The notes under the pieces were generated by a model, which searched no databases, was not told the origin of the DNA, and was given only the letters and a program-made list of their open reading frames with translations. A stretch of DNA of 63,621 nucleotides from Promethearchaeota archaeon (GTDB lineage: Archaea; Asgardarchaeota; Hermodarchaeia; Hermodarchaeales; Hermodarchaeaceae): positions 1-63,621 of the forward strand of contig JBHLPR010000009.1 in assembly GCA_048939245.1 (NCBI GenBank), read 5' to 3'. Of the stretch, positions 3,338 to 52,578 are shown in pieces. A program made the position numbers and the translations under genes. Positions within the stretch are counted from its first letter, which is position 1. The number at the start of each line of letters is the position of its first letter.

Positions 3338-3432
3338 CTTCAAGTGGTTTTAGGGTACGTTATATGTTTACATGAATGACTATCGAAGACATACATGCCT
3401 GGAATCTTTCAAATGCTGTGAAAGATAATTTT
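3338..3432 (+). repeat. Polar intergenic repeat copy 3
   Basis: TCGAAGACATACATGC at 3383, AATGCTGTGAAAGATAATTT at 3412; right arm degenerate. Confidence 0.85.
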
Positions 3433-6037: not shown

Positions 6038-6617
6038 ACCTCTCAATATGAGAACTCGGGACCAGGCGAAATATGACGCGATTGTAAAGGCATCTATCCA
6101 GCTGGTCAATACACTCGGATTTGATGGCATCTCGATTTCCAAGATAGCGAAGAAAGCCAAAGTGTCACCAGCGACGATCTATATCTATTTTGAGAACAAA
6201 GCGGACCTATTTACCAAGCTCTATATCGATATTCGAAAGAAAACGCATCGAGGTCTCATTCAGGGAGTGCGGGATGAGATGACGATTGAACAAACATTCA
6301 AGACTATCTGGTATAACTCCTTCTTCTATCATCTCAAGCATCCTGAATATATTGTTTTTCGGGAACAGTTTGAACAGACATCGATGATGAAGAACGTCAG
6401 GGAGAATGAATTCGAGTCCTATAAATATGTCAGAAATCTCCTCCAGCGTGGCATTGACGAGAAGACCATTAAAAACCACCCATTACCCATTCTTACAGCT
6501 TTTGCCTTTATCCCTGTAATCACCCTCATCAAATATCATCGAAGTGGTATAATCAAGATGGATGAAGCCCAGATTCAGCAAGCATCTGAAATCGCATGGA
6601 ATGCCATTAGTAGCTAA
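6024..6617 (+). CDS. TetR/AcrR family regulator (likely start 6048)
   Basis: HTH IAKKAKVSPATIYIYFENK. Confidence 0.92.
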   Translation: MNAYSPLNMRTRDQAKYDAIVKASIQLVNTLGFDGISISKIAKKAKVSPATIYIYFENKADLFTKLYIDIRKKTHRGLIQGVRDEMTIEQTFKTIWYNSFFYHLKHPEYIVFREQFEQTSMMKNVRENEFESYKYVRNLLQRGIDEKTIKNHPLPILTAFAFIPVITLIKYHRSGIIKMDEAQIQQASEIAWNAISS

Positions 6618-13049: not shown

Positions 13050-13159
13050 TCCCTGTATTACCCTCCCCCCTCCGGATCACATTCCTATATTTGCAGATAA
13101 GACACTCCAGCTCTTTTCATTTCAGTTGATGGTTTTGTCTCACCAAGTAGGTTGAAGTC

Positions 13160-13265
13160 AATAATGCTAATTATCACTTGATATCAGCCATCCTGATGAA
13201 TTTCGAAGACATACTTGCGTAGGATCTTTCAAGTGATGTGAAAGATAGATTTGTTTCACATCGTT
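13160..13265 (+). repeat. Polar intergenic repeat copy 7
   Basis: TCGAAGACATACTTGC 13203, AAGTGATGTGAAA-GATAGATTTG-TTTCACATCGTT 13231-13265. Confidence 0.92.
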
Positions 13266-13283
13266 TACTATCCTTTGAGTTTC

Positions 13284-13328
13284 GAAAAAAAAGAAAAAAG
13301 GAAGTAATGCCGTGGCAGACATCACTTC
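13284..13328 (-). terminator. Hairpin plus U-tract terminator of the 13344-13646 gene
   Basis: Minus-strand RNA GAAGUGAUGUC-UGCCAC-GGCAUUACUUC followed by a long U-rich run. Confidence 0.7.
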
Positions 13329-13343
13329 AAGGAGACCGTGTTT

Positions 13344-13646
13344 TTAGGTTGTTTTGAACCCATAGAGTGGTAAGGCTTCTTCAGGGGTCCATACTGGTTC
13401 TATGCGCATTTTGTAGCCTTTGATCGGGATGAATTTGGCCATGACCTGGTTTAAATAGGCGAGACCTTCTTTGGCCTTGGCATCATTGATTTCATAGAAC
13501 GTGTACGTTTTGATGTCATCTGCAGCAGAAATGAATTGGTATAAATGTTTGACAAATTTGGGTCGTTGAGGTAATTCTCATAAGAATACCTTGACAACCT
13601 CCTTAACCATGTGTGGGGGAAACTGGTTAGTTAGCATGACGTGCAT
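13344..13646 (-). pseudogene. Paralog of the 101-aa protein at 37728-38033, with one in-frame TGA at codon 23 (absent from the ORF track)
   Basis: Hand translation MHVMLTNQFPPHMVKEVVKVFL*ELPQRPKFVK...EGLAYLNQV...TPEEALPLYGFKTT*; TGA at 13580-13578. Confidence 0.85.
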
Positions 13647-13768
13647 GCAGTTATGACCTCCAACTTTTACTTGAGGATCTATAGATTACTCCCTATAGAC
13701 TCCCCTAATTGGATGCTTTCAAAGCCAATTTTATAAAAAGGATAAGTTACTTGTTTACGTTGGTATTG

Positions 13769-13874
13769 CTGCAGTTTTATTTTCAAGATGTTGTTCGCCA
13801 CCTTATAGGAAGTCGAAGACGTATATGCGATTTGTTACTATTAGCTCGAAAGATATGATTAGTTCCGCATCATT
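13769..13874 (+). repeat. Polar intergenic repeat copy 8 (between divergent genes)
   Basis: TCGAAGACGTATATGC 13813, GAAAGATATGATTAGTTCCGCATCATT. Confidence 0.85.
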
Positions 13875-13953
13875 AGTATTCCTTGAATCATCATCGAGAA
13901 TTCCTTTTTATTTCAAGATAACAAAGGGTTAGTATATTGGACCTCGAAGGCTG

Positions 13954-15774: not shown

Positions 15775-15879
15775 AACCAAGCGGTTTCTCCAGTTGATTT
15801 ATGCCAGTTAATTTAGTTTCAAAGACACAAATGCCTTATCTCGAACTAACGATGTGAAAGATGATTTGTTTCACATCAT
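15775..15879 (+). repeat. Polar intergenic repeat copy 9 (full; between two minus-strand genes)
   Basis: CAAGCGGTTTCTCC, TCAAAGACACAAATGC 15819, GATGTGAAA-GATGATTTG-TTTCACATC. Confidence 0.92.
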
Positions 15880-15905
15880 ACTGTTTCGGGTGGGTAACCA
15901 ATATT

Positions 15906-16310
15906 CTAGCCAATGAGTGGCATGATCGTGTACTTCACCTGTTGGAGTCCTCGTATGGCTCGGATTCGGCTAATGAACTCGGTTACATCTTTGGCTTCTC
16001 CCTCAGCAATGAATACCTCTAGGCAATAGGTTTCACCAAGGTGTAAGTGCATATTACCAGATACAATATGGCTGTGGGCATGACGAAGGCGTGTTAATCG
16101 TTCATCGACTCCTGGCAGCTCGTGAGCGGAGATGGCGGTGATGGTGGCTGTCACTCGTCCTCCTTCAAATTGTTGGAGTTCAAATTCTGAAAGCGCAGTG
16201 CGAACCGCATCCCGAATCGCCTCTGACCGACTGGAATACCCCCGTTCCTTCATGAAGTGGTCCAATTGTTTCAGTAGTTGGGCGGTTAATGATATGCTAA
16301 TAATAGGCAT
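15906..16310 (-). CDS. NikR-like ribbon-helix-helix metalloregulator
   Basis: ISISL...GYSSRSEAIRDA RHH domain; HLHL...CLEV metal site. Confidence 0.88.
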   Translation of the reverse strand: MPIISISLTAQLLKQLDHFMKERGYSSRSEAIRDAVRTALSEFELQQFEGGRVTATITAISAHELPGVDERLTRLRHAHSHIVSGNMHLHLGETYCLEVFIAEGEAKDVTEFISRIRAIRGLQQVKYTIMPLIG

Positions 16311-16407
16311 ACAATCACATTATTAATTCAAGGGTCTATTTTTAATAAATATTATTAAGAATCGCCATTTGAATTAGCACTATCTTAATAGATGCAATGA
16401 CTATCAG

Positions 16408-18393
16408 GTGATTATTGACAAGGCGAATTATGGTCTGGGGATACCCCAAGTGCAGGACGAGTATACCGAGAATGGGAATAGTTGCACCGTGTGCGAAGTT
16501 GACTTCGAAAATGCTATTCGCCGACCTGCCTTTTGGCAGGATTACAGGGTGCTCATCATTCTTGCTTCGACGACGTTGTTCGTCTTAGGGCTTACCGTTG
16601 ATTTCTTCCTGCACCTGCCGTTCATGGCTCTTACTCTTTACCTCTTTGCGGTGTGCATCGCCGGATATTCCATTGTAATTGCAGGCATCAAAGGACTGGT
16701 CTTCCGTCGGCGGCTGAATATTGCCTTTCTGATGACCATTGCGGCGATGGCCAGTTTTCTCATTGGACATGCCGCGGAAGGTGCCGCTGTTATGGTTCTG
16801 TACTTTATTGCTGAATTTCTGGAAAGTAAGGCGAAGGAGAATGCCCAGCGATCCGTCGCGTCATTGATGAAGCTGGCTCCGGAAACGGCGACAGTAAAAC
16901 ATGATGGCGAAGAATTGCAGGTTCATGTACATGAGGTACACCTTGCTGAACTCGTGGTGGTCCGGCCTGGTGAAAAAATTCCGCTAGATGGGATTGTTCT
17001 CCGTGGGACATCGAGCGTTAATCAAGCCCCCATCACAGGTGAATCCCTTCCAGTGGTTAAGACCGTCAATGATGAGGTGTACGCTGGGACCATCAACAAT
17101 GAAGGGTACCTCGAAATTCAAGTTACACGATTATCCGATGAAACGGTGCTTGCAAGGATTTTAGCCATGGTGGAAGAGGCACAACAATCCAAGTCTCCTA
17201 CGGAGCAATTTGTTGACAAGTTTGCGAAATACTACACGCCGTCCGTCGTTCTGGTTGCAGTGTTCGTTGCGATAATTCCGCCCTTTGTGTTGGGCGTTCC
17301 TTGGATTGACTGGATTTATCGGGCGCTAGCCTTACTAGTCATTTCCTGTCCTTGTGCTCTAGCCATTGCGACGCCAGTTGCCATGGTGTCGACATTGACG
17401 AGTGCTACGAAGCAGGGCGTGCTGATTAAAGGGAGTCGTTACATCGACGGGTTGGGTAATGTTAAGGTAGTTGCCTTTGATAAGACCGGCACCTTGACAT
17501 CGGGGCAATTGGCGGTGACCGACATTATTCCTTTTGGGGAATCCGCCTACTCGGTTGTCCGGGTGGCAGCGTCAATTGAGAACTTCTCGCAGCACCCCAT
17601 TAGCAAGGCGATTGTGGCGAAGGCTTTGAATCCCGGATTACAATTGAACGCCGTGGATGATTTCACAGCCATTAATGGGCAAGGCGTCTCTGGCAGAATC
17701 GATAACAAAGAATTTTTTGTTGGAAGTGAACGATTGTTCACTGAATTAGCTATCTCATATCCTAAGGATCAAGTTCGGCGTCTAGAGGAAGAAGGAAAAA
17801 CCGTTATCCTGGTTGGTGATTCAGCACGAGCGATTGGAGCAATAGCCATTCAAGATACGATTCGCCCCACTAGTGTGAGGACTATCGAGACATTGAAACA
17901 AATGGGGATTAAAACCGTCATGGTGACCGGCGATAATAGATACACAGCTGCATTTATCGCAAAGCAAATTGGCATCGATGAATTTCATGCAAATTTGATG
18001 CCTGATGATAAAGTCAAGATTCTCAAAGAATTGCAGCAACAATATGGTGCCATCGCCATGGTGGGAGATGGAGTAAACGATGCCCCCTCGCTAGCCACGG
18101 CTGATGTGGGCATTGCAATGGGAGCAATTGGGAGTGACGCTGCTATCGAAACCGCCGACATCACATTAATGCACGATGACCTCGCAAAATTGCCTTATCT
18201 GTTTGAATTAAGCCGAAAAACGCGAAGTATTGTTCGTCAAAACATCGGAGTCGCATTAATTGTCAAATTCAGCTTGGCTGCTTTGGTCTTTCCGGGCTTA
18301 GTCACCCTGTGGTTAGCCGTAGCCATCGGAGATATGGGCTTATCGTTGGCAGTTATACTTAACGCGATGCGACTTTCCCGAGTAAGATCTTAA
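16408..18393 (+). CDS. Heavy-metal P1B ATPase (ZntA/CadA type)
   Basis: TGES, CPC, DKTGT, HP, GDGVNDAP; C-terminal TM Lys and DMG typical of the Zn/Cd subgroup. Confidence 0.93.
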   Translation: MIIDKANYGLGIPQVQDEYTENGNSCTVCEVDFENAIRRPAFWQDYRVLIILASTTLFVLGLTVDFFLHLPFMALTLYLFAVCIAGYSIVIAGIKGLVFRRRLNIAFLMTIAAMASFLIGHAAEGAAVMVLYFIAEFLESKAKENAQRSVASLMKLAPETATVKHDGEELQVHVHEVHLAELVVVRPGEKIPLDGIVLRGTSSVNQAPITGESLPVVKTVNDEVYAGTINNEGYLEIQVTRLSDETVLARILAMVEEAQQSKSPTEQFVDKFAKYYTPSVVLVAVFVAIIPPFVLGVPWIDWIYRALALLVISCPCALAIATPVAMVSTLTSATKQGVLIKGSRYIDGLGNVKVVAFDKTGTLTSGQLAVTDIIPFGESAYSVVRVAASIENFSQHPISKAIVAKALNPGLQLNAVDDFTAINGQGVSGRIDNKEFFVGSERLFTELAISYPKDQVRRLEEEGKTVILVGDSARAIGAIAIQDTIRPTSVRTIETLKQMGIKTVMVTGDNRYTAAFIAKQIGIDEFHANLMPDDKVKILKELQQQYGAIAMVGDGVNDAPSLATADVGIAMGAIGSDAAIETADITLMHDDLAKLPYLFELSRKTRSIVRQNIGVALIVKFSLAALVFPGLVTLWLAVAIGDMGLSLAVILNAMRLSRVRS

Positions 18394-18430
18394 TGAACCA
18401 TTTGGATAAGAAATACTCAACGGAATGACA

Positions 18431-18498
18431 GAGCCTTTTAATTTCTCAGGCGTTATCCGCTATTCCCTTAATCTTCGAAGACATACCTGCCACATCAT
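18431..18498 (+). repeat. Polar intergenic repeat copy 10 (internally deleted)
   Basis: GAGC 18431, GTTAT, TCGAAGACATACCTGC 18475 joined directly to CACATCAT. Confidence 0.85.
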
Positions 18499-36203: not shown

Positions 36204-36313
36204 AAACGGGAACCTCCGCTATATGTGCTCTATTATTGGGATTTTGCGTTTTAATTGACTTTCTCTATTCTGAAAATGATTTTTGATATTTTCTCTGACG
36301 TTTAAAATTTCTC

Positions 36314-36346
36314 AACGATGTGAAAGATAGATTTGTTTCCCATCAT
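36314..36346 (+). repeat. Polar repeat fragment (hairpin part)
   Basis: AACGATGTGAAA-GATAGATTTG-TTTCCCATCAT. Confidence 0.8.
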
Positions 36347-36426
36347 ATGCTAGATAGATGAAAACGTTGACAAGAGTGATGAACAGGATAACGCACCACT
36401 CAAGAGAGTTTTTGACTAGCAAAGGA

Positions 36427-37554: not shown

Positions 37555-37647
37555 GAGAAGATTGTTTTCATGTGTGTTATTCGCTTTTTTTTCCTTAGGT
37601 TCGAAGACATACCTGTCGTTTCTTCTCAATAAAGAATTGTTTCACAT
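37555..37647 (+). repeat. Polar intergenic repeat copy 19
   Basis: GAGAAGATTGTTTTC 37555, GTTATTCGC, TCGAAGACATACCTG 37601, TTGTTTCACAT. Confidence 0.88.
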
Positions 37648-37676
37648 ATAGAAAATCAAATTAGTTTTGTGTTTTT

Positions 37677-37711
37677 AAAAAAAGAAAGTAATGCCAAGAT
37701 GGCATTACTTT
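37677..37711 (-). terminator. Hairpin plus U-tract terminator
   Basis: AAAGTAATGCCA-AGA-TGGCATTACTTT with an adjacent A-run on the + strand. Confidence 0.75.
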
Positions 37712-37727
37712 TAGAAGAAGGAAGTTT

Positions 37728-38033
37728 TTAGGTTGTTTTGAACCCGTAAAGTGGTAAGGCTTCTTCAGGGGTCAGTACTACTTCAATGCGCAGCTTGTAT
37801 CCTTCGATTGAGATAAATTCCGCTTGAACCTGGTTAAGGTAGGCAAGACCTTCTTTGATTTTGGCATCTTCGATTTTAAAGAGCTGATAGCCTTTGATAT
37901 TATGTGCTGTGTTTACGACTAAGTATAACTGTTTAACAAACGTGGGTGTTTTAGGATACTCCCTTTTGATGTATGTCTTGGCCACCTCTGCAGCCTTGTG
38001 GGGCGGAAACTCGGTAAGTACCATGACATGCAT
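37728..38033 (-). CDS. Small hypothetical protein (101 aa), intact paralog of 13344-13646
   Basis: GGAGG SD; terminator; clear paralog in the window. Confidence 0.85.
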   Translation of the reverse strand: MHVMVLTEFPPHKAAEVAKTYIKREYPKTPTFVKQLYLVVNTAHNIKGYQLFKIEDAKIKEGLAYLNQVQAEFISIEGYKLRIEVVLTPEEALPLYGFKTT

Positions 38034-38153
38034 GTCGTTTTTACCTCCAATTTGTGCTTGAGAACCTACAGATTATTACCCATAGACTCCCCTAATTGGC
38101 TGCTAGCAGAGTAGATTCTATAAAAGGATATTTACTTTGTATTCGTTAAGTGT

Positions 38154-38250
38154 TGGTGCATTTATTTTCGAGGCGTTATTCGCTACTGTAAGGGATGTCG
38201 AAGCCACATATGTGATTCATTATAAATGACGGAAAAAATGGTTTGCTATT
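38154..38250 (+). repeat. Polar intergenic repeat copy 20
   Basis: GTTATTCGC, TCGAAGCCACATATGTG 38198, AATGACGGAAA. Confidence 0.75.
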
Positions 38251-39716
38251 ACGCTGTTTTCGACTTCTTTGCTAGATTTTTTAGTAAGTTGGTAGGATTA
38301 TCTGTTTTAGCAAGGAGTTGGTTTCAAGCAATGAGATATTCGATATCAATTCCCGTGTTGATAATGGTGAGTTTATCTGTTTCTTTGATGATTCCGTTAC
38401 CTACGTTATATATGGCTTCAGGCATAGGCTGTGAGCTGTCGGCAACGGGAGTAACGAAGGCAGAAGCGGTTATAGCGGCAGATTCGGTGTCGTCCGTATG
38501 GAACTGGACGTTTGGTGGGGCGAATATGGACTGGGGATGTTCGGTAATTGAGGTAAGTACAGGAGGCTTTGCCGCTGTGGGGTATACGCAGAGTTCTGGT
38601 GCGGGCGATTCAGATGTGTGGTTAATTCTTACTGATGAATCCGGCAATCCACAATCCAGTCATACCTTTGGTGGTGTCGATCGCGATATTGGTTGGGGCA
38701 TCATAGAAGTTAGCAGTGGTGGGTTTCTCATTGTAGGGGAAACAGAAAGCTTTGGTGCCGGTGATTTTGATGCCTGGTTAATTCGGGTTGATACGAACGG
38801 AAATCACCTGTGGAATCAGACCTATGGCGGACTGTATGATGAATGGGGCTGGACCGTCGTCGAATTGAGTACTGGCGGCTTTGTTTTTTCAGGGCGTACG
38901 GCTAGCCTTGGTGCTGGATCGTTTGATGTCTGGTTAGTACGCACCGATAGCTATGGAAATCACCTCTGGAACCACACCTTCGGTGGGACTAACATTGATG
39001 TAGGCAGAGGTATGGTAGAACTAAGTACCGGCGGCTTTGCCATTATTGGACAAACATCAAGCTTTGGTGCCGGCTTTTATGATTTTTATTTGATTCGAAC
39101 CGATGCTGATGGCAATTTGGTGTGGAGTCGCACCTATGGTGGTACAGGTCTTGATGAAGCAGCATCCATTGCTGAGGTGAGCACCGGTGGCTTTGTGTTG
39201 ACTGGAGATACCTTTAGTTATGGTGTAGGGTCAAGTGATGTATGGTTAATCCGTACCGATGCTAATGGAAATAGTCTTTGGAACCAGACCTTTGGTGGTG
39301 CTGATGCAGATGGAGGGATGGCTGTTATCGAAATGAGCAGCGGTGGCTACCTCATCACTGGTGAAACCGAAAGCCAGGGGGCGGGAGGTGCAGATTTGTG
39401 GTTGATCCGCACGAATGCTGATGGAATTGCTACTTGGAATCAAGCTTACGGTGGTGCTGATGATGAGGAAGGTTGGGCGGTTATTGAAACGAGTTCTGGC
39501 GATTTGGTGGTCTTGGGAGAAACGAGTAGTTTCGGTGCGGGGCTAGCTGATGCATGGTTGATTCAGGTCACCGAGGAATTGGCGTTGCCACCGTTTCCCT
39601 TAGAGATCCTCTTCCTTATCGTAGGTGTAATTATCATCGTTGTGATTATCGTCGTGGTTATCATCGTAATCAGACGCCGCCGCAGCAAACCTCGTAAACG
39701 AAGGCGCAAATCTTAG
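38226..39716 (+). CDS. Membrane-anchored repeat protein, predicted beta-propeller (likely start 38331)
   Basis: Seven ~52-aa repeats WxxT(F/Y)GG...ExSxGGF...G.T.S.GAG..D.WL(I/V)RTD; C-terminal TM plus Arg tail. Confidence 0.85.
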   Translation: MTEKMVCYYAVFDFFARFFSKLVGLSVLARSWFQAMRYSISIPVLIMVSLSVSLMIPLPTLYMASGIGCELSATGVTKAEAVIAADSVSSVWNWTFGGANMDWGCSVIEVSTGGFAAVGYTQSSGAGDSDVWLILTDESGNPQSSHTFGGVDRDIGWGIIEVSSGGFLIVGETESFGAGDFDAWLIRVDTNGNHLWNQTYGGLYDEWGWTVVELSTGGFVFSGRTASLGAGSFDVWLVRTDSYGNHLWNHTFGGTNIDVGRGMVELSTGGFAIIGQTSSFGAGFYDFYLIRTDADGNLVWSRTYGGTGLDEAASIAEVSTGGFVLTGDTFSYGVGSSDVWLIRTDANGNSLWNQTFGGADADGGMAVIEMSSGGYLITGETESQGAGGADLWLIRTNADGIATWNQAYGGADDEEGWAVIETSSGDLVVLGETSSFGAGLADAWLIQVTEELALPPFPLEILFLIVGVIIIVVIIVVVIIVIRRRRSKPRKRRRKS

Positions 39717-43485: not shown

Positions 43486-44505
43486 TTGCAATTGGTTGCA
43501 CTACTCCTACCCGTCTTTGTCTTACTAATTCTGGCGAGTATTGTAGCCTTTGCTATTGGAGCAAACGATAGCACCATGGCCAATTTGGTCGGTGCTAAAG
43601 TGCTTTCACTGAGGGGCTCCGTTATTTTGGGAGCCAGCCTATTGATTATTGGAGCCGTGGTGTTAGGTCAGGGCGTAAGTACGACAATTGGTTCAGATAT
43701 GGTTACCCAGCCACTGAGCGTTGATCTTGTGTTTGTTATTTCATTAGCAATCATTGTATGGATGTTGTTCAGTGCCTACCTGGGTTACCCGATTTCAGCT
43801 ACTCATTCAGTTGTTGGGGGCATTATAGGTATTGGATTGTTAGAGGAGTTTGTTTGGGGTATACCTATTATTCGGTGGGACACCATCTCAATTATTCTCA
43901 TTGGCTGGATTCTGAGCCCACTGCTTAGTTTAATAGTTGCTTTTCTCCTTCAACGTTACATTCGTAGAACGCTTCTTTCGAAAACCAAAGGATTAACGGA
44001 GATTCAGCGAAGGGAGCAGATTTTTGGTTGGTTGTTACTGGTGATGGTTATTATTATCTGCCTAAGTCGTGGAGGGAATGATGTGGCTAAGGCGATAGGG
44101 TTGTTGACAATCTTTTTTGCTGAACCCATCGAACTTTCATTATTGTTGTTGATGGGGGGAGTAGGCATGGGACTTGGATTATTAGTTTTGGGACGACGAG
44201 TGGTTCGGACGGTTGGAATAGAGTTGACGGAATTACGTCCCAGTGCGAGTTTTTCATCGGCAACATCAGGGGCCATTGTGTTGCTTGTTGGTACGATTTG
44301 GGGGATTCCACTTGCTGCAACGCATATCCTTATTACATCGGTAATTGGAGTGGGCATGGCAAATCGAGCATCTACGAATAAGACGGTGTTACGAAAACTG
44401 ATCTTAACCTCTCTTCTTACCGTTCCCGTCTCAGCAGTCCTTGCGATCTGTATTTGGTGGATTTATCAGATAACACTTCCCTTCATATTCCTACCCGCCC
44501 TGTGA
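43486..44505 (+). CDS. PiT family inorganic phosphate transporter
   Basis: GAND and GGNDVA signatures; PISATH and PLAATH. Confidence 0.9.
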   Translation: MQLVALLLPVFVLLILASIVAFAIGANDSTMANLVGAKVLSLRGSVILGASLLIIGAVVLGQGVSTTIGSDMVTQPLSVDLVFVISLAIIVWMLFSAYLGYPISATHSVVGGIIGIGLLEEFVWGIPIIRWDTISIILIGWILSPLLSLIVAFLLQRYIRRTLLSKTKGLTEIQRREQIFGWLLLVMVIIICLSRGGNDVAKAIGLLTIFFAEPIELSLLLLMGGVGMGLGLLVLGRRVVRTVGIELTELRPSASFSSATSGAIVLLVGTIWGIPLAATHILITSVIGVGMANRASTNKTVLRKLILTSLLTVPVSAVLAICIWWIYQITLPFIFLPAL

Positions 44506-44600
44506 ATTATCATTGACTACCATTAAGCTAAGCCCCCGAAAAAAAAGAACGGAAAACCAAAAAATGGTTTTTTAGTTGTTAAATTTTCTTCCGATTATTG

Positions 44601-44616
44601 TCGCAGACGTATGTGA
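44601..44616 (+). repeat. Possible polar repeat core (weak)
   Basis: TCGCAGACGTATGTG resembles the copy 8 core TCGAAGACGTATATG. Confidence 0.4.
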
Positions 44617-44700
44617 CTAAGGAGATTATTCTGAGCTCGAGAAGCTATGTAAGATTCTTTGATTCTGTCGACTTATTTTGATTCTGAACCGTTATTCTTG

Positions 44701-45309
44701 TTAGGGCAGTAAAGCCCCGATGAGTACCAATACACCTGCGATGATAAATGCGGTGGCGGCAACGTAGGCGATTGTCGTTGTGCCGAGGTATTGTCGGGCG
44801 CGGTCACCAATGATTACACCAATACCATTCACGATTGCTAAAGCAAGAAATGCTGCGATAAGAACAAGGAGCAGTTGTCCTGTTGTAGCGGCAATCAAGA
44901 TTACAACCAGCTGGGTTTTATCACCTAGCTCCGCAATGAAAAGCAGGATAAATGCGCGTACCCATACACGGTTTCCTGGCGCCGCGGTTGACTCTTCGTC
45001 TTCTTGAGTACGTCTTATTCTGTAAACAGTAATAATGCCCAAAATTATGAAAATGATGCCTGCGATTAGTTGGATCAGTGAGAGAGGAATCAAGAATGCA
45101 ATAAGGGAACCAGCAAGAACGCCAATTATGGTTACAGTAAATAATCCACCCAATACCCCGAGGTACACTTGAACAGGTTTTCCAGTTTCAGCTACGAGGG
45201 CGAAAGTGACAATTTGGGTTTTATCTGCTAGTTCAGCAAGTAAAACTAATGCGAATACTGTGAGAAAGAGTGAAACTAGCAAGATGGACATAGATTTACA
45301 TTGTGCCAT
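44701..45309 (-). CDS. TMEM165/GDT1 (UPF0016) Ca/Mn transporter
   Basis: Two motifs AELADKTQ and AELGDKTQ. Confidence 0.92.
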   Translation of the reverse strand: MAQCKSMSILLVSLFLTVFALVLLAELADKTQIVTFALVAETGKPVQVYLGVLGGLFTVTIIGVLAGSLIAFLIPLSLIQLIAGIIFIILGIITVYRIRRTQEDEESTAAPGNRVWVRAFILLFIAELGDKTQLVVILIAATTGQLLLVLIAAFLALAIVNGIGVIIGDRARQYLGTTTIAYVAATAFIIAGVLVLIGALLP

Positions 45310-45373
45310 GAACAGTGTTTAATTGGATTTCCATCAGCTAGAAAAAAATGACGCTAGCTCGTCAAGATGACGT

Positions 45374-45859
45374 TTATAGTTCACCGATGTCTTCGTTCCA
45401 GAGCTGGGGATGTTCGTTGATGAATGCTTGCAAGAGTTCTTTGCATACAGGTAGGTCTAAATCGATGACTTTTACGCCCTGTGATTCCATGAATGTGCGG
45501 GCACCGGCAAAGGTTTGAGATTCGCCGGCAATGACCTTAGCAATTTTGAATTGCACTACGGCTCCGGCACACAGGTAACAGGGCATCAGGGTTGAATATA
45601 ATGTGGTACCTGCATAGTTGCCGATGCGTCCCGCGTTTTGGAGGCAATCAATTTCTGCATGCAGGATTGGGTTATTTTGTTGTACGCGTTGATTATGCCC
45701 TTGTCCAACGATTGTTCCATCCTTGACCAGCACGGAGCCAATCGGAATACCACCTTCTTGGCGGCTTTTCTTTGCTTGTTTAAGAGCGGCTTGCATGAAA
45801 GGGTCCATTGGTCGAATCACCATTGCATTTAATGAACGTACAATTTGAGATCTTTGCAT
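45374..45859 (-). CDS. Zinc-dependent cytosine/nucleoside deaminase
   Basis: GGIPIG, HAE, PCYLC, WNEDIG (yeast Fcy1-like). Confidence 0.9.
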   Translation of the reverse strand: MQRSQIVRSLNAMVIRPMDPFMQAALKQAKKSRQEGGIPIGSVLVKDGTIVGQGHNQRVQQNNPILHAEIDCLQNAGRIGNYAGTTLYSTLMPCYLCAGAVVQFKIAKVIAGESQTFAGARTFMESQGVKVIDLDLPVCKELLQAFINEHPQLWNEDIGEL

Positions 45860-45919
45860 TATATGCTCTTCTCTTTGGGTTCGAAGAGATGCTTATTCAA
45901 GCAGAAGGAACCCTAGGGG

Positions 45920-45985
45920 CAGTTTCAAAATTAGTAATAAGCGTTTTGTCGTTCTATTTGATATCGAATACATAAGTGCGATCTT
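45920..45985 (+). repeat. Polar repeat, last recognisable copy
   Basis: TCGAATACATAAGTGC at 45964 (one mismatch to the copy 2 core). Confidence 0.6.
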
Positions 45986-46013
45986 CTAAAGTATACAAAT
46001 GGTAACATAATTT

Positions 46014-46613
46014 CTATTCCGTGGAATCGCTGTGTTTCTCTTGGAGGTTTTCAATGATTTTAAACGAGTCCCAAAGGTTGCCTTGGAATCGAGAGAATGG
46101 AAAAATTAGAATCAATTGGATAAAGAACATGACAACTAACTGAATTATTATGAGGCCAGGTGGACCCCAGAATATTAGAATGGCATTTTCAATTTGAGCA
46201 AAGAAGGGATAGAAGAACTTAGCAGCGGCGAAGCTGGCTAAGTTGATGAGGAATAAGCCAAAGCTGAAGATGAAATAGAGGAGTAGTTGGATACTACGTC
46301 GGACAGACTGCTTTATGTTCTCTGTAAGCTTTGTATATTGTTTTGCGGGAAATGGGATGATTTCAAGGCTTTTACTAGCTAAGTAAAAATTAATTTCGTA
46401 GCTTATGATGAAACCGATGATGGTGAGCCCAAGTGCATAACAAATGGTGAGGAACATAATGAGGGGCATGCCCCAGGTTGAGAGAGATTCGTGGGGATAT
46501 TCGAGGAAGTAGATGACAACAATGAAGAGAAACCCGAGTAGAACACCAATTAATGCGAGGATTGCTTCAAGGTTGATATTGGGACGTTGGAGTGTTGCTG
46601 GTTTTTTAGTCAA
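46014..46613 (-). CDS. Four-TM hypothetical protein
   Basis: Hydrophobic helices; GGAGG SD before TTG. Confidence 0.7.
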   Translation of the reverse strand: MTKKPATLQRPNINLEAILALIGVLLGFLFIVVIYFLEYPHESLSTWGMPLIMFLTICYALGLTIIGFIISYEINFYLASKSLEIIPFPAKQYTKLTENIKQSVRRSIQLLLYFIFSFGLFLINLASFAAAKFFYPFFAQIENAILIFWGPPGLIIIQLVVMFFIQLILIFPFSRFQGNLWDSFKIIENLQEKHSDSTE

Positions 46614-46675
46614 GTGAGAACCTCCAATGGACGTTCAGGCTGTAGACAATTAAATGTGGTTTCTGTTCCTAGTGT

Positions 46676-47653
46676 TTAGTATACCGCGCGGGTGATATCT
46701 TCGAGGAAATCGAAGCGGTAATCTAAGAGAAGTTTAGGGTTTTCGACGAAGATGGTGAAGCTGTAGGTAAAAGCAAGGTAGGAGGTTGATGAGAGGACGT
46801 AGCCGGGTTTGTAGCCAAACTTTCGGGTCCAACGTTTCATGATATTTGGGAGTTTGTCTTCATAGTGGTTAAGACCGCGGTCGATTGGGAACTGGAGTTC
46901 GAATGTGTATTGGATGAGGTTGGAGGTATCTACAGCTCGACTCAGTGCTTTCCAAATTCGTTTCGGGATTGACGCGTCTTTTTCAGGTTCTGGCGTTTCT
47001 TTGCCTGTGCTTTTTTGTTCAAAGCGGAAGTTGGTTACTGCTGAGCTCATCACATTGTCATTGGGAATTAATGCGATAGTGCCATCCAATTGTCGTATCT
47101 TTGTATAGTTGAGACTTATTTCAAGAACGATTCCTTCGTTGGATCCGATTCGCACATAATCACCGACGCTGAAAGGGTCGGTAATCATCACGTATAATCC
47201 GGCGACAAAATTACGCACAGCAAGGCTAAGGGCAACACCTACTGCTAAACCTATGATGACGGTGGCGTCCCCGATGATGATTTGGATTTGTGTCGGGAGA
47301 ATAGTGGTGAATGCAACTACGGCGATCCAAACGAAGATGATACGAATTGTGAGCACAATGCCATTAATCGCATTTGGGGGGACTCGGAGTTTTTTGGCTC
47401 GGCGTCGAACAAATCGAGTGATAATACTGGAGAGGATTAGGAGAATTACTAAGATCAGGATAAGTTGGACTATTGGTAAAACCGGGAAAAGAACCACCTG
47501 TAAAGTGTAGAGGGTGTCCAAAAACAAACGGATGATATCGCCTAGCGGGTCGGTTGGTTGAAGCATATGTTCCACCTTTGTTGGTATATTTTGTTTCAAG
47601 AATTTAAGATAGTAGTCATTTTCTAGTAATATAGAGAACAGCGATGCCTCCAT
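46676..47653 (-). CDS. MscS family mechanosensitive channel (true start probably near 47566)
   Basis: NFVAG...PFSVGDYVRI...G.V.EI.L.YT...IPN. Confidence 0.88.
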   Translation of the reverse strand: MEASLFSILLENDYYLKFLKQNIPTKVEHMLQPTDPLGDIIRLFLDTLYTLQVVLFPVLPIVQLILILVILLILSSIITRFVRRRAKKLRVPPNAINGIVLTIRIIFVWIAVVAFTTILPTQIQIIIGDATVIIGLAVGVALSLAVRNFVAGLYVMITDPFSVGDYVRIGSNEGIVLEISLNYTKIRQLDGTIALIPNDNVMSSAVTNFRFEQKSTGKETPEPEKDASIPKRIWKALSRAVDTSNLIQYTFELQFPIDRGLNHYEDKLPNIMKRWTRKFGYKPGYVLSSTSYLAFTYSFTIFVENPKLLLDYRFDFLEDITRAVY

Positions 47654-47660
47654 GTGGGAA

Positions 47661-47762
47661 CTATTTAGTTATTAACGCAGCAGTAGTGAGATGAACGCGC
47701 CTTGTTACAATTAAGAGTACGGTGATGAAGAAGATGATTAGAATGAGCAGCCAGAGTTCCAA
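47661..47762 (-). pseudogene. 33-codon hydrophobic ORF, possibly an N-terminal remnant of an ArsB/NhaD-type transporter
   Basis: Hand translation MELWLLILIIFFITVLLIVTRRVHLTTAALITK*. Confidence 0.35.
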
Positions 47763-47920
47763 TTTCTTTCACAGGTTTTGAATGGTTGGATTTAGTGCTA
47801 TTAAATTCTTAATTCCAAAGGTTTTTGGTTGAATTTTGACTATTATTTTACTGAAAAAACAATGACTATTCTGAGTTGCGTTATGGCGTGTTAGTCATTA
47901 ATTTCAGAGAATGTGAGAAA

Positions 47921-48106
47921 ATGTCTGAAGAAGTAAAATGTCCTAAATGTGGTGAAAAAAAGAAGCTTCGTCTCATGCTATTGGATACGCCTGAGAATCG
48001 GAAGAAGGAGGATACGGACCCTGAGAGGATTCTTTTGGTCGCTTCGAAGGCGTTTGATGGTAAAATGGAGTGTCTGAAGTGTGGGCACTTCTGGGATGCA
48101 GAATGA
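47921..48106 (+). CDS. Small zinc-finger protein
   Basis: CPKC...CLKC; ATG at 47921 (ORF track starts at 47876). Confidence 0.7.
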   Translation: MSEEVKCPKCGEKKKLRLMLLDTPENRKKEDTDPERILLVASKAFDGKMECLKCGHFWDAE

Positions 48107-48229
48107 TTGCATATTGCTTTACAGCATAAGGAGTCTGCTTTGCCAGGCTAATCCGTAGTGAAAAACGCTGACTTGCAATGTGATATTTATGGATTTAGTT
48201 TTTGAAATCGGAAGAAAGGACGTTTAGAA

Positions 48230-50242
48230 TCATCGATCATGATCTGCCGGACATTGGTCAAGACTCCAGTAGATGACTGGGACATCGGCGACTTTGACAC
48301 CTTGGAGTAGCTTGGGAAACATGACAAGGATTGTTCCAAAGGTTGGACCGCGCACTTTCATGCGGTAAGGAGTGTTTTCACCGTTGCTGACCGCGTGGAA
48401 GCAGAGTTCTCCGCGTCCGCCTTCAATGCAATAGAAAGCGTCGCCAGGTGGGATTTTTAGTCGCCAGGTAATCTTTTTGCCTTCAGGAGTTTTTGTTTCA
48501 CAGACCGGACCTTTGGGCAGCTTGTCCAATGCACGTTCAATGATGTTGAGACTTTCTTCAATTTCCTGTCTACGACAGAGGAATCGATCGTAGGCGTCAC
48601 CGTTTGTTCTGGTGATTACCTTCACTCCGATGTCTTTGTAGGCTTCATAGGGGGTTGCTGTTCTCACGTCAAAATCGATACCAGTTGCTCGGAGATTGGG
48701 ACCGGTGACGTCGTTTTGAATAGCGGTGGTCTGGGAGAGAGGAGCAAGATTTTGTGTGCGATCGATGAAGGTTTTATTATTGAATAGGAGGTCGTCGTAA
48801 ATGTGAAGACGTTTACGGATATAACTGATGAGTTTTTCAGCTTTATCTGGAAAATCGGGTTGAATGTCGCGGCGGACACCACCGATGGTGTTGAATATGT
48901 GGTAGACCCGTGCGCCAGTGAGCTCTTCAAGAAGGAAAAGGACATGGTCGCGGTCACCCCAGATGAGGCGTTCGATGGTATCAAAACCTGAAGCGGCTCC
49001 ACCAAAACCGAGGTTCATTTGGTGACTTTGAATGCGTGAGAGTTCGGCTTGGATTACACGCAAATATTGCCCGCGAATGGGAACCTGGATGCTGGCTAGT
49101 TTCTCTGTTACACCGGTGTAGGCGAGTTCATAGGAGGCTCCATCGAGGACGCAGATTCGGGGGACAAGCATGATGTTTTGTCCCCATGTGCGGTATTCCA
49201 TGAGTTTCTCGAAGCCCCGGTGGAGATAACCGGGGTAGGGAATAGCCTCAACGACGATTTCACCGTCCAGTTTGAGGTCCATATTGAAGTTTCCTGAGGC
49301 GGGATGTTGGGAGCCGAAGACAACATCGAATTCGGCTTTACTGGGATCTGCCCCTTTGAGGGGATAGGGGGGTAACTTCATTTGACCAGCGTCTGTGTTT
49401 GTCATTTCCTCTTTTCCAGTGTATCCACCCTGAATGGCTTGGATAGCATGGACGACGGCTACACCAATTGGTTCGGGACGTGGTGGGCAGCCGGCAATCC
49501 AGATATCAATGGGTATGTATTTGCTGATGTCTTTGATGGTGTTGTAGCTGTCCCAATACGTTCCGCCGGTCATAGGGCAATTACCGAGCGCGATAACCCA
49601 TTTGGGTTGAGGCATAAGGGAGTAGATGCGGATGATTCGTTTCAGGGTCTTCGGGGTTACATAGCCCCCGACTATTAGACAATCTGCATGTCGGGGAGAG
49701 CCCACGGCTAAGAGGCCGAAACGCTCCATGTCGAAGGAGCTAGCAACCCATGGCACCGCTTCAATGAAGCAACAGCCGGTCATGTAGTTTACGATCCAAA
49801 TACTACGAGAGCGTGCCCATGAGACGGTGTTCTTTATTTTCGGAGGCTCTGGGTGTTCTAGTACTGGGGGGATGGCTAGCATTTCTGGTGTATAGTTGAG
49901 GGTTTCGGGTTTCATGGTGAGTAAGATGGGAAAATTCGTGAAAGTGAGCGCGCCTGTTGGACAGTTGTCAACGCATAAGCCACAGAAACAGCATTTCCGA
50001 AAATCAATTTGGGGTTGAAGTCCGGTTTTATTTTCTTCGCTTTTTTCTCGTTCGACCATCTCTATTGCATTGTTGGGACAGACAATCGAGCAGATCTTAC
50101 AGCCTTTACATAAGTCAGATTTGTACAGTTGTCGACCCCGGTATAATTCAGTTAGTGGCATATCGGGGGGAAACGAGAAGGTCATTGGTTTTGATACTGC
50201 GAGTCCTAGAACACTTTTTACAGCTTTAAGAAGGCGCGACAT
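48230..50242 (-). CDS. Fused NuoI-like/NuoB-like/NuoD-like protein (Mbx/MBS-type peripheral arm)
   Basis: Two CxxCxxCxxxCP; TGCCFIE...GNC...GCPPRP; GYLHRGFEKL, RICVLD, C-terminal DQCPADHDR. Confidence 0.88.
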   Translation of the reverse strand: MSRLLKAVKSVLGLAVSKPMTFSFPPDMPLTELYRGRQLYKSDLCKGCKICSIVCPNNAIEMVEREKSEENKTGLQPQIDFRKCCFCGLCVDNCPTGALTFTNFPILLTMKPETLNYTPEMLAIPPVLEHPEPPKIKNTVSWARSRSIWIVNYMTGCCFIEAVPWVASSFDMERFGLLAVGSPRHADCLIVGGYVTPKTLKRIIRIYSLMPQPKWVIALGNCPMTGGTYWDSYNTIKDISKYIPIDIWIAGCPPRPEPIGVAVVHAIQAIQGGYTGKEEMTNTDAGQMKLPPYPLKGADPSKAEFDVVFGSQHPASGNFNMDLKLDGEIVVEAIPYPGYLHRGFEKLMEYRTWGQNIMLVPRICVLDGASYELAYTGVTEKLASIQVPIRGQYLRVIQAELSRIQSHQMNLGFGGAASGFDTIERLIWGDRDHVLFLLEELTGARVYHIFNTIGGVRRDIQPDFPDKAEKLISYIRKRLHIYDDLLFNNKTFIDRTQNLAPLSQTTAIQNDVTGPNLRATGIDFDVRTATPYEAYKDIGVKVITRTNGDAYDRFLCRRQEIEESLNIIERALDKLPKGPVCETKTPEGKKITWRLKIPPGDAFYCIEGGRGELCFHAVSNGENTPYRMKVRGPTFGTILVMFPKLLQGVKVADVPVIYWSLDQCPADHDR

Positions 50243-50245
50243 TTT

Positions 50246-50734
50246 CTATTTACCTCCCACCTGATAGTATTCTTTGTTGACGTAGTCACGCCAGTTGAAG
50301 TCCTTGCGTAATGGTGGTTTTCCCTTCCAATCCTCGAGAAAAAGTGGTTTCAACATCGTATTCCCGACATAGTTGATGCCAAAGAGTTCCCACATCTCGC
50401 GTTCGTGCATTGCTGCGGATTCCCAGATGGTGGAGAGGCTCTTAATTTTGGGTTTGTTTCGGGGGATGCGTGTCGCCACTTTCGCGTATAGATTAGCTGC
50501 AAGGTGGTGAACGACATAATACGCTTCGAATTCTTTCTGTTCTATCCAGTCGACGATGGCTACTGTTAGACAACGAGAAAAGCCCCGTTCGAGGAGATCA
50601 GGAGCAAGATTTGCATACGTTGCTGGATTTGTTGCGATTGATAAGAGGTTGCCATCTATTTCGATGTTGGATATGGCATATTCGGATTTCAAAGCGCTTG
50701 ATAAGGATGCTGGCTCTATTGTTTCTTTTTTCAT
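50246..50734 (-). CDS. NuoC-like subunit
   Basis: SLSTIW..A.MHEREMWELFGI...PPLRKD. Confidence 0.9.
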   Translation of the reverse strand: MKKETIEPASLSSALKSEYAISNIEIDGNLLSIATNPATYANLAPDLLERGFSRCLTVAIVDWIEQKEFEAYYVVHHLAANLYAKVATRIPRNKPKIKSLSTIWESAAMHEREMWELFGINYVGNTMLKPLFLEDWKGKPPLRKDFNWRDYVNKEYYQVGGK

Positions 50735-50747
50735 GGTGCCAGTCTCC

Positions 50748-50812
50748 TTAGGCGTCAGGCGCCTAAAGCTTAGGTTTCCCTAAGTTTTTTCTTAGGTTAT
50801 CTAAATACCTAA
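50748..50812. promoter_or_regulatory. Cluster of TTAGG...CCTAA (DtxR-type) boxes upstream of the nuoC-like gene
   Basis: TTAGGCG-TCAGG-CGCCTAA (50748-50766), CTTAGG-TTTC-CCTAAG (50769-50784), TTAGGT...ACCTAA (50792-50812). Confidence 0.65.
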
Positions 50813-50928
50813 CGCATTTCACCAATTTCACTCGCCTCTTCAATAAACTTCGAGCTTGGGGTTCGAAAAGAAGGATCTGCTTGCTTTAGTCCACTTTGTT
50901 ACAGGCTATTCACCGTGCCAGTGTGCTT

Positions 50929-51498
50929 TCAAGATTTGTTCTCATTGGAGGAGGGCAAAGTTTTTTCATAAAAGCAACTTTTCTTATGGGTTTCTACTAG
51001 CGTATACCCGTAGGATTCGTAGAGAGCTCGTGCAGGTTGATTATCATCCAGAACGTGGAGAGCAATAACATGCAGTCCCTCATCGTGGGTCCATTTTTCG
51101 ATGGTTTCCAAGAGTAGTTTTGCTAGACCTTGTCGGCGGAATTTGGGGAGTATGTGCAGGTTATAGATCCAGGTGAGATGTTCCCTATATCGCCAGAAAG
51201 GAGCACGGTGACAGACCCAGATTAGCCCTGCGGGATGTCCTCCAGGAGTTTCACCAATAAAGACCATGTGATTTGGTGAGGACATATCGATTGGATCGTT
51301 GGCATCAAATTCTTGGTATTTCTGGCGGATTTCATCATCAGACAATGATTCAACGTTTGGTAGAGTCGTCTTGAAAGATTCAATTTGACAATGATCGAAA
51401 AAAGCTTGATCGGAAACTTGATTCCAAGGACGAGTGTGAAAGTGCATCATGATACCTTCTTCGATTTCACTAATAACAGGTGGGTGAATCTTTTCCAC
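50929..51498 (-). CDS. GNAT acetyltransferase
   Basis: PKFRRQGLA, N..ARALYESYGY. Confidence 0.9.
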   Translation of the reverse strand: MEKIHPPVISEIEEGIMMHFHTRPWNQVSDQAFFDHCQIESFKTTLPNVESLSDDEIRQKYQEFDANDPIDMSSPNHMVFIGETPGGHPAGLIWVCHRAPFWRYREHLTWIYNLHILPKFRRQGLAKLLLETIEKWTHDEGLHVIALHVLDDNQPARALYESYGYTLVETHKKSCFYEKTLPSSNENKS

Positions 51499-52068
51499 TT
51501 TTATATCAGGTGTTTCCGGAATGAATGTGTGATAAGCATGGACATGTGGTTGATTATTGGCACCGTTGTCATTATCATTCTGGTAAGCGTTATAGCCTTT
51601 GGTATATCAGCCGTATGGCCCTCGTTGATTGGAGCCCCATGGGTTCCGGTTTCAAAGAAAACAGCACAGAGGATGCTTGAACTAGCTAAAGTGACGCAAG
51701 AGGATACTGTTGTGGATCTAGGATCAGGGGATGGTCGCATCATTATGATGGCAGCTCAAAAATTCGGAGCTAGCGCCGTGGGAATTGAAGCAGATCCATT
51801 TCGTGTTTTATGGTCGCGAGGTGTAATTCGGCGTCGCGGTTTGAATGAAATTGTTGAGGTGATTTGGGGGAATTTCTTCACGAAAAGCGTACCTGATGCC
51901 ACCGTTGTAACTGTTTACCAAGGACAGTCAATTAATAAACGGTTGAAAACCAAGCTTGCTACCGAGTTAACACCTGGGACCCGTGTAGTCTCCTATAGTT
52001 TCCCCTTTGAAGAATGGACACCGGTAGAGATGATAAAAAACCCACGACTCTACCTTTACGTAATATAG
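51385..52068 (+). CDS. Membrane-anchored SAM-dependent methyltransferase (likely start 51538)
   Basis: GAPWVP, VDLGSGDGR, PGTRVVS. Confidence 0.88.
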   Translation: MTMIEKSLIGNLIPRTSVKVHHDTFFDFTNNRWVNLFHFYIRCFRNECVISMDMWLIIGTVVIIILVSVIAFGISAVWPSLIGAPWVPVSKKTAQRMLELAKVTQEDTVVDLGSGDGRIIMMAAQKFGASAVGIEADPFRVLWSRGVIRRRGLNEIVEVIWGNFFTKSVPDATVVTVYQGQSINKRLKTKLATELTPGTRVVSYSFPFEEWTPVEMIKNPRLYLYVI

Positions 52069-52141
52069 AAGAGGTTTCCTTTTAAGAAATCGTTGGGGGT
52101 TGGAGAAGCCGTTGTGATTGAAAAAGAAAAGGTTTCAGTAG

Positions 52142-52348
52142 TTACTTCTTGGTTACCTTTGCAGCCTTCGGACGTCCAGTGCCTTCTTTAAGTTCAAATG
52201 TGACCTGATCACCTGCATTGAGTACAATTCCGCCTTCAACATCGTCACCGTGAACGAAGACATCACTGTCACCATTACCACGTTGGATGAAGCCGTAATT
52301 GCGATCTGCATCAAACCATTTGACAGAGCCGTTTTCCATAGAGATCAC
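52142..52348 (-). CDS. csp: Cold-shock domain protein (likely start 52339)
   Basis: GSVKWF..YGFI, DVFVH. Confidence 0.93.
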   Translation of the reverse strand: MISMENGSVKWFDADRNYGFIQRGNGDSDVFVHGDDVEGGIVLNAGDQVTFELKEGTGRPKAAKVTKK

Positions 52349-52578
52349 CTCGATTCTCTTTTATTGGGTTTAAGTAGCATGATAACTCGAGAAGCTAGAT
52401 TTCATAAAAAACGAAACTAGATTCTGTTTACCTTCCATGCGAAGGTACGAAAATCATTTTTAGTTTTTTCGATTGTGTACAAGAGCTGATTTTCGGTTTT
52501 TGTGTTGTTCGATTTTGTTTGTTCGAGAAAGCTGATATTGGCGAATCCCGCAAGACTCAGGTCATGGGGTTGATCAAT

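Follow-up and report, generated by a model that had tools for sequence, protein, structure and literature searches.

A small gene cassette in two diverged versions within a repeat-bounded array of a Hermodarchaeia genome

The described systems that lie closest to the locus considered here are integrons and the Xer/dif modules. Archaeal integrons were reported in 2022, and possess IntI as well as attC sites that fold canonically (PMC9668308). Their attC sites are imperfect palindromes that form, as single strands, a bulged hairpin with R''/L''-L'/R' boxes (PMC9668308), and the clusters of attC sites that have no integrase (CALINs) include archaeal, Asgard-enriched ones (Ghaly et al. 2022, PMC9668308). 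The archaeal XerA/dif site consists of two 11-bp inverted arms on either side of a 6-bp spacer (PMC2958812). Integrons are the sole gene-cassette platform for which we found a description in the literature, and for Hermodarchaeota we found no paper about cassette arrays of the kind described below.

The genome that carries our locus comprises 2.52 Mb in 122 contigs and is 88% complete. The window, i.e. the whole stretch of DNA that was analysed, is the entire contig C42 (63,621 nt). A composite repeat of ~115 nt is present in 17 copies at 0.3-38.3 kb of the window, all on the plus strand (nhmmer, E <= 0.001), and weaker copies extend to 46 kb. Beyond C42, the repeat is restricted to three small contigs (C121, C50 and C106), and is co-oriented on each. 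It consists of an upstream half (U), which carries GTTTTTCC and GTTATnTGC motifs, followed by the core TCGAAGAC, a linker of ~25 nt and a hairpin. The hairpin has arms of 9-11 bp and a loop or spacer of 9-10 nt in all five good window copies. Genes between the repeats lie on both strands, some cassettes contain operons, and cassettes reach several kb. We compared the window with other genomes of the same Hermodarchaeia genus (G003, G006-G009, G011, G013 and G014). Across the genus the repeats are all co-oriented and limited to one locus type, and window cassettes reappear in relatives in different orders, for example along G008:C66. In one two-gene cassette (15819-18485), a NikR-like regulator and a P-type ATPase travel together, and the block 15893-18485, which is 81-85% identical in G003:C54 and G008:C66, terminates exactly at the core.

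The region past 46 kb is mosaic too. Genes on the far side of this apparent array end (44500-52500) match relatives blockwise on different contigs, and 48215-50828 matches G006:C9, which is itself an array contig; the variable region may reach further than the recognisable repeats. A stretch of ~190 nt at 47876-48106, with a 76-aa ORF whose zinc-ribbon matches are weak, is found again in at least nine genomes of the genus (76-83% identity), sometimes twice, and is present inside arrays as well (e.g. G006:C58:15625-15809, directly before a repeat). An Rfam search returned no family match anywhere in the window.

The first-pass annotation of this DNA had singled out a repeat-to-repeat unit at 13.2-13.9 kb as being duplicated some 24 kb away. 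The two units (13203-13820 and 37601-38205; 610 and 597 bp core to core) are indeed homologous, with 13294-13832 matching 37678-38217 at 73% nucleotide identity (BLAST, E 7.9e-79, also in the reciprocal search), and the common layout described for them is confirmed. Minus-strand hairpins followed by T-runs, which resemble terminators, are found at 13328-13301 and 37711-37685. The two leaders have the 18-mer ATAGACTCCCCTAATTGG in common (13695-13712 and 38082-38099), and a TATA-like box lies ~21 nt upstream of it in both units. The genes outside the repeats were said to differ and they do: an OppF/DppF-type ABC ATPase and a methyltransferase in one case, a PALP enzyme and a repeat protein in the other. 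A minus-strand gene of ~100 aa had also been assigned to both; its frame is present in both units, but in the 13.3-kb copy it contains an in-frame TGA.

In BLAST, global and multi-instance alignments the homology neither extends beyond the repeats nor ends at positions unrelated to them, and in 100-nt blocks of the global alignment the identity is 60-85% within the homologous range and ~40-55% outside. These sequence comparisons support the view of the unit as a discrete mobile cassette whose ends lie in the flanking repeats. The in-window pair alone places the right breakpoint only within -45..+25, and the comparison across genomes is much stronger evidence for mobility than this pair.

Unit 1, which we call the alpha type, lies between the OppF/DppF-type ABC ATPase gene and the methyltransferase gene. 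Its left-hand repeat (nhmmer match 13170-13276) begins with a U half at 13153-13202 (plus strand) that is not common to other units and that we assign to the dpp-side block. The core TCGAAGAC of this repeat follows at 13203-13210 (plus), and then come the linker and a hairpin with a 9-bp stem (13211-13262, plus), for which fold prediction gives arms at 13235-13243 and 13254-13262 and a 10-nt loop. The linker/5'-arm subtype found at 13203 recurs at 3383 and twice in G008:C66 beside unrelated content (94% and 89%), and the 94% match to the linker and hairpin, G008:C66:16727-16789, is followed by other content. The co-inherited body of the alpha cassette occupies 13263-13820 on the minus strand, and contains terminator, gene, leader and putative promoter, together with the next repeat's U half as far as the core. 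Within it, a terminator-like hairpin (13301-13328, minus) precedes a T-run (13291-13300), and the gene for a small ferredoxin-like protein of alpha type is at 13341-13646 (minus). The conserved 5' leader, which starts at ~13712 and has a possible stem-loop, and the TATA-like box (13730-13741) together span 13647-13741 (minus). The U half and core of the right-hand repeat (13763-13820, plus) are co-inherited with the gene: six instances are alike as far as the core and unlike after it. The right-hand linker and its degenerate hairpin (13821-13881, plus) have a different affinity, in that the 3' part belongs with the methyltransferase block and not with unit 1; the 3' arm and the methyltransferase block are shared with G009:C66.

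The premature stop in unit 1 is codon 23 (13578-13580). All alpha-type relatives have Gly at this position, and a single base change, GGA to TGA, would explain it. Because of this in-frame TGA where relatives have Gly, the 13.3-kb gene is probably a pseudogene, unless the TGA is an assembly error.

Unit 2, the beta type, lies between the PALP (cysteine-synthase-type) enzyme gene and the gene for a 496-aa repeat protein. Its left-hand repeat contributes a core and linker at 37601-37650 (plus), with a hairpin that has no 5' arm. The co-inherited body (37678-38205, minus) ends in the core variant TCGAAGCC (38198-38205) and contains a terminator-like hairpin followed by a T-run (37685-37711, minus), an intact beta-type 101-aa gene (37728-38033, minus), and the conserved 5' leader with a TATA-like box at 38117-38127 (together 38034-38127, minus). 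After the core, a degenerate linker and hairpin (38206-38261, plus) are homologous, with indels, to those that precede the same repeat-protein gene in G007:C43. Upstream of the PALP gene is a junction that consists of a hairpin only (36309-36353, plus), without U half or core, where the blocks of relatives separate in the loop or 3' arm. The 496-aa protein next to unit 2 is membrane-anchored and contains six tandem repeats of 156 nt (52 aa) at 38613-39493; it has no Pfam match.

The 101-aa protein itself has nothing above threshold in Pfam or NCBIfam. It is reminiscent of DUF3303 (PF11746) in being a small alpha+beta protein of ~100 aa with a predicted beta-alpha-beta-beta-alpha-beta core, and 6 of 25 homologues gave weak matches to this family (best E 0.0055), none of which reaches the Pfam threshold; the query gave none. 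We rejected membership in DUF3303, since no match exceeded the Pfam gathering score. An AlphaFold model of the beta protein (25 sequences; pLDDT 92.5) has the topology beta-alpha-beta-beta-alpha-beta-alpha, and in Foldseek its only neighbours were generic ferredoxin-like folds (PII, IsdG/ABM, ACT; TM 0.3-0.5). The leader upstream of the gene is conserved in four instances. Its predicted fold (13647-13712 and 38034-38099, minus strand) has 19 pairs, at which we saw wobble-compatible changes only and no compensatory ones. In this fold, the 5'-terminal CCAAUU is paired with an AAUUGG that immediately precedes the GGAGG ribosome-binding motif, and the pairing encloses a 10-bp stem-loop. The promoter and the transcription start are assignments that we infer from these signals. 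On this prediction the cassette is a self-contained, backward-facing expression unit, with TATA-like box, leader, gene and hairpin/T-run terminator.

Within the window, some features of the two units could suggest that one is a recent copy of the other. A recent segmental duplication within the array, by which the unit was copied 24 kb away and then drifted, would fit the common layout and the near-equal core-to-core length, and also the observation that the right-hand U halves are nearest neighbours in the window (0.72). The right-hand repeats had been described as sharing sequence variants, and this holds for one half of them. Their U halves are 0.72 identical, where the mean for the window is 0.575 (sd 0.06), and this value ranks second among 120 window pairs, but their downstream halves are at 0.60 against 0.61. 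The left-hand repeats of the two units resemble each other no more than copies of the family generally do. Likewise, the suggestion that the copies at 13813 and 38198 are sisters does not survive the addition of relatives; they are nearest neighbours only among window copies, and in their upstream halves only.

The alpha and beta proteins are 63% identical and fall into two subfamilies, each with closer relatives elsewhere. The alpha protein is 91% identical to P0007 and 88% to P0008, both metagenome proteins, and 87% to the G007 copy, and the beta protein is 85-86% identical to P0002, P0003 and P0006 (metagenome or MAG proteins). Because both copies are closer to proteins from other genomes or metagenomes than to each other, a recent duplication does not explain the pair. 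Nucleotide identity of 73% and protein identity of 63%, set beside 87-91% and 85-86% to relatives, speak against it, as does the tree of U halves, which parts alpha from beta and gives each of them partners from other genomes. We therefore abandon duplication within the array, and regard a recent event of this kind as highly improbable. The two units are best read as old, separately inherited alpha and beta versions of one cassette.

Copies of the cassette family are found in five other genomes, or species, of the genus (G007, G009, G011, G013 and G014). The cassette in G007:C109 is complete and matches 13232-13827 at 84% (BLAST), and those in G013:C110, G009:C134 and G011:C19 are all cut by contig ends. 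On every flank that can be compared, namely in G007 and on one side each of the partial G013, G011 and G009 copies, the neighbours differ. More remote homologues of the protein are spread over other Asgard families, with several per genome, and a metagenome scan for contexts of the beta subfamily yielded a single weak locus. In G007:C109 (locus L027, 1777-2370), the gene is ~90% identical to the window alpha gene, yet the U half is nearer to beta (0.84 versus 0.72). This cassette is a possible mosaic, and hints at exchange between cassette paralogues. Two decayed members are also seen: in G011:C39 (L035, 5752-6111) what is left is the 3' half of the gene together with the terminator, and 1602-1823 of G014:C31 (L033) is a leader remnant and U half alone, between two repeats. 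Damaged copies of the family within the genus comprise one with a nonsense codon, one truncated and one without the gene. That copies within the genus are often damaged suggests that the cassette gene is dispensable.

The position of the cassette ends was examined in the six right-hand junctions and five left-hand junctions of the family. In all six right-hand junctions the homology passes through promoter region, leader and U half to TCGAAGAC, with unrelated sequence starting immediately behind it, so that the right end always lies in or next to this 8-bp core. At the left end, the sequence to the left of the core is unrelated in 5/5 instances, and common sequence starts at or just after the 3' arm of the hairpin. 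The first-pass annotation took the moved unit to be the gene plus its right-hand repeat. This is correct for ~50 nt upstream of the core, which are co-inherited with the gene, but not for the linker and hairpin after the core. Trees of the two halves of the repeat agree with this division. In a tree of U half plus core, the six right-hand repeats form one group (support 86/87) with a single long-branch intruder, and within it 38198 pairs with the G007 copy as beta (98/99), while 13813 joins the G011, G013 and G014 copies as alpha. In a tree of core plus hairpin half, the six right-hand and five left-hand repeats are unclustered, and each set needs four changes, the same as shuffled labels.

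We then widened the comparison to 79 repeat copies, taken from the window, from the three small contigs and from 18 loci in genus relatives. Flanks were measurable in 3003 pairs, of which 33 have the left flank in common, 24 the right and 0 both. Pairs with a common left flank have a U-half identity of 0.72 and a hairpin-half identity of 0.60; those with a common right flank have 0.58 and 0.66, respectively; and the background of pairs that share neither has 0.58 (sd 0.06) and 0.62 (sd 0.07). For the 12 left-flank pairs without indels, the maximum-likelihood breakpoint is at -5 to +8 from the first base of the core. (Ungapped maximum-likelihood mapping fails on pairs with indels, giving many spurious values of -45/+53, and the mapping therefore rests on these 12 clean pairs and on gapped profiles.) In about one-third of the pairs with homologous left flanks, the U half is at background similarity, which may reflect fast divergence or a third exchange point.

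On the right-hand side, homology starts exactly at the core in several groups (4116 with G009:C134, and 23290 with G003:C54), and in others the first shared bases lie in the loop or 3' arm of the hairpin (G008:C66:20606), or beyond the hairpin. The hairpin-only junction at 36309-36353 is informative here: G008:C66 matches the left block up to and including the 5' arm and loop, and G013:C110 has the right block from the 3' arm. The methyltransferase block beside unit 1 splits in the same way, at the 3' arm of the hairpin, in G009:C66. Since chimeric and hairpin-only junctions break in the loop or 3' arm, the repeat would appear to have a second exchange point in the hairpin in addition to a main one in the core. 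The hairpin half is weakly linked to right-hand content (0.66 versus 0.62), and thus a model of circles exchanging at one site does not explain everything. A further composite junction, at ~6170-6290 of locus L040 (G003:C83), has a core and linker of 15819 type, then ~40 nt of the start of a 4116-type cassette, and then what belongs to a different cassette. An internal deletion, at a distance from the core, appears to have produced it.

Taken together, the two units are probably diverged members, alpha and beta, of one cassette family in a genus-wide Hermodarchaeia pool, housed in a gene-shuffling array that is site-specific and not an integron. On this reading the core would be where conservative site-specific exchange moves cassettes, probably by way of an excised circle that is taken up again at another core, and the hairpin, with its inverted arms and 9-10-nt spacer, would serve as a second point of exchange, used less often. 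We saw neither an excised circle nor an empty site, nor polymorphism within a population. The two copies would have entered the array, or diverged, long before the present species arose, and the alpha copy would later have been inactivated by the GGA-to-TGA change.

The main rival to this proposal dispenses with a dedicated recombinase altogether. The repeat would then be an intergenic element with some other role, and the shuffling would result from homologous or microhomology recombination and gene conversion at its conserved blocks. The two stretches of the repeat that are most conserved are also those in which the breakpoints fall (the background match of the core is 0.90-0.97), as homology-driven exchange would predict. 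It would also accommodate the several classes of breakpoint (core, hairpin loop and left edge of U), the internal deletions that fuse cassettes away from the core, and the fact that we found no array-linked enzyme. Nevertheless, a core of 8-11 nt in repeats that are otherwise ~60% identical is very short for such a process, yet no clean left-flank case breaks anywhere else. Throughout the genus, all copies share one orientation and are found at one type of locus only, their fixed modular spacing resembles that of a protein-binding site, and 0/57 shared junctions keep both neighbours. On balance, we consider exchange driven by homology alone unlikely, and continue with site-specific exchange as the preferred reading.

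Site-specific exchange calls attention to the recombinases of the genome. The integron integrase model TIGR02249 (IntI) hit a single Xer-type gene, on C82, with 90.7 + 71.6 bits against a cut-off of 265, leaving model positions 177-237 unmatched. IntI, a tyrosine recombinase distinguished by an additional domain, was not found in this 88%-complete genome, and the Xer-type gene on C82 is the sole match to PF00589. This gene (L003:1117-2064) is an XerA orthologue, with 274 bits against a cut-off of 220 for NF040815 (recomb_XerA_Arch), which is single-copy in 12/14 genus relatives. As the sole site-specific recombinase detected in the 88%-complete genome, it is the default candidate enzyme. No recombinase is linked to the array on C42, whose left end runs off the contig, and the first 5 kb at the array start in G006:C58 contain none either, only ABC, Ras-like GTPase, aminotransferase and MarR genes. 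Serine recombinase profiles had no match in the genome. A search elsewhere in the genome for a dif-like, single-copy relative of the hairpin gave only chance-level matches with three mismatches.

We also considered whether the repeat could be an attC site. For three of four repeats tested, folding of the whole repeat on either strand gave z-scores of -0.4 to +0.9. The fourth, 13153-13276, gave -2.3 to -2.4, a result due to its intact terminal hairpin and not to a whole-site fold. Only the terminal hairpin of ~30 nt folds, and it is degenerate at 13813 and 38198. By inspection, the repeats contain no RYYYAAC...GTTRRRY (R''/R') pair. The attC/integron reading was rejected on the grounds that the repeat lacks the bulged-hairpin fold and the search of the 88%-complete genome yielded no IntI.

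The conserved hairpin raises a different possibility, which we treat as a minor rival: that the unit is a non-autonomous single-strand or rolling-circle transposon (PATE/IS200-IS605-like or HUH-type), with the hairpin at one end and U plus core at the other, that inserts beside a core and has become stacked head to tail. Strict strand co-orientation, breakpoints in or beside the loop of the hairpin, and a right end that regenerates the target core are what such an element would produce. The genome has no match to the Y1 transposase (PF01797), and none to PF04986, PF14214 or PF02407 (Y2, Helitron-type and viral Rep), the latter being a weak result, since the controls gave no matches either and are uninformative. 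Furthermore, the hairpin is at one end only, the copies are not dispersed in the genome, and the linker/5'-arm module is common to unrelated cassettes. These properties make a stacked transposon improbable. A MITE or classical transposon was rejected: the copies are co-oriented and found on C42 and three small contigs, and the unit has no terminal inverted repeats.

A broader proposal is that the array represents an independently evolved gene-capture platform, neither IntI- nor attC-based. Its site of ~115 nt would have two exchange points (TCGAAGAC and the dif-like hairpin spacer), its cassettes would pass between species as self-expressing packets, and its enzyme would be a co-opted XerA or a member of an unrecognised family. 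To this fuller picture we give about even chances. What is new here is the linkage of half-repeats to cassettes, the second exchange point, the self-contained expression unit and the old alpha and beta lineages. Being small, the shortest in the window array, and recurrent in several species, the cassette makes a convenient natural marker: it pins one end to the 8-bp core, tells the repeat half that moves along with the gene from the one that does not, indicates that cassettes can be complete expression units, and reveals the second exchange point in the hairpin. These boundary facts can serve the design of recombination assays and the search for the enzyme, and they are relevant to how Asgard archaea gain and shuffle accessory genes.

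The array has much in common with integrons and CALINs. Many co-oriented sites stand between unrelated accessory genes at one chromosomal locus, cassette orders differ between related species, and cassette decay by nonsense mutation, truncation or gene loss is common. Each site of the array combines parts of two cassettes, which meet at a short core, and, as in integrons, one cassette occurs in different contexts with its junctions at a fixed point of the site. On the other hand, the genes of the Hermodarchaeia array lie in both orientations, cassettes can be several kb long with several genes, and the cassette described here has promoter-like and terminator-like signals of its own. Unlike in integrons, the part of the site that travels is on the 5' side of the ~100-aa gene, and there is a second exchange point in the hairpin. 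Aloposons are unrelated to the array. The pdif modules of Acinetobacter plasmids have sites in alternating orientation, whereas the sites of the array are all in direct orientation. Xer/dif modules in general (IMEX elements, pdif) resemble the array in the presence of an XerA orthologue and in the inverted arms of the hairpin, which looks like a recombinase core site, with breakpoints in or beside its spacer. However, the spacer is 9-10 nt in 5/5 good window copies and not the 6 bp of dif, and the commonest breakpoint is a separate, non-palindromic core of 8 bp.
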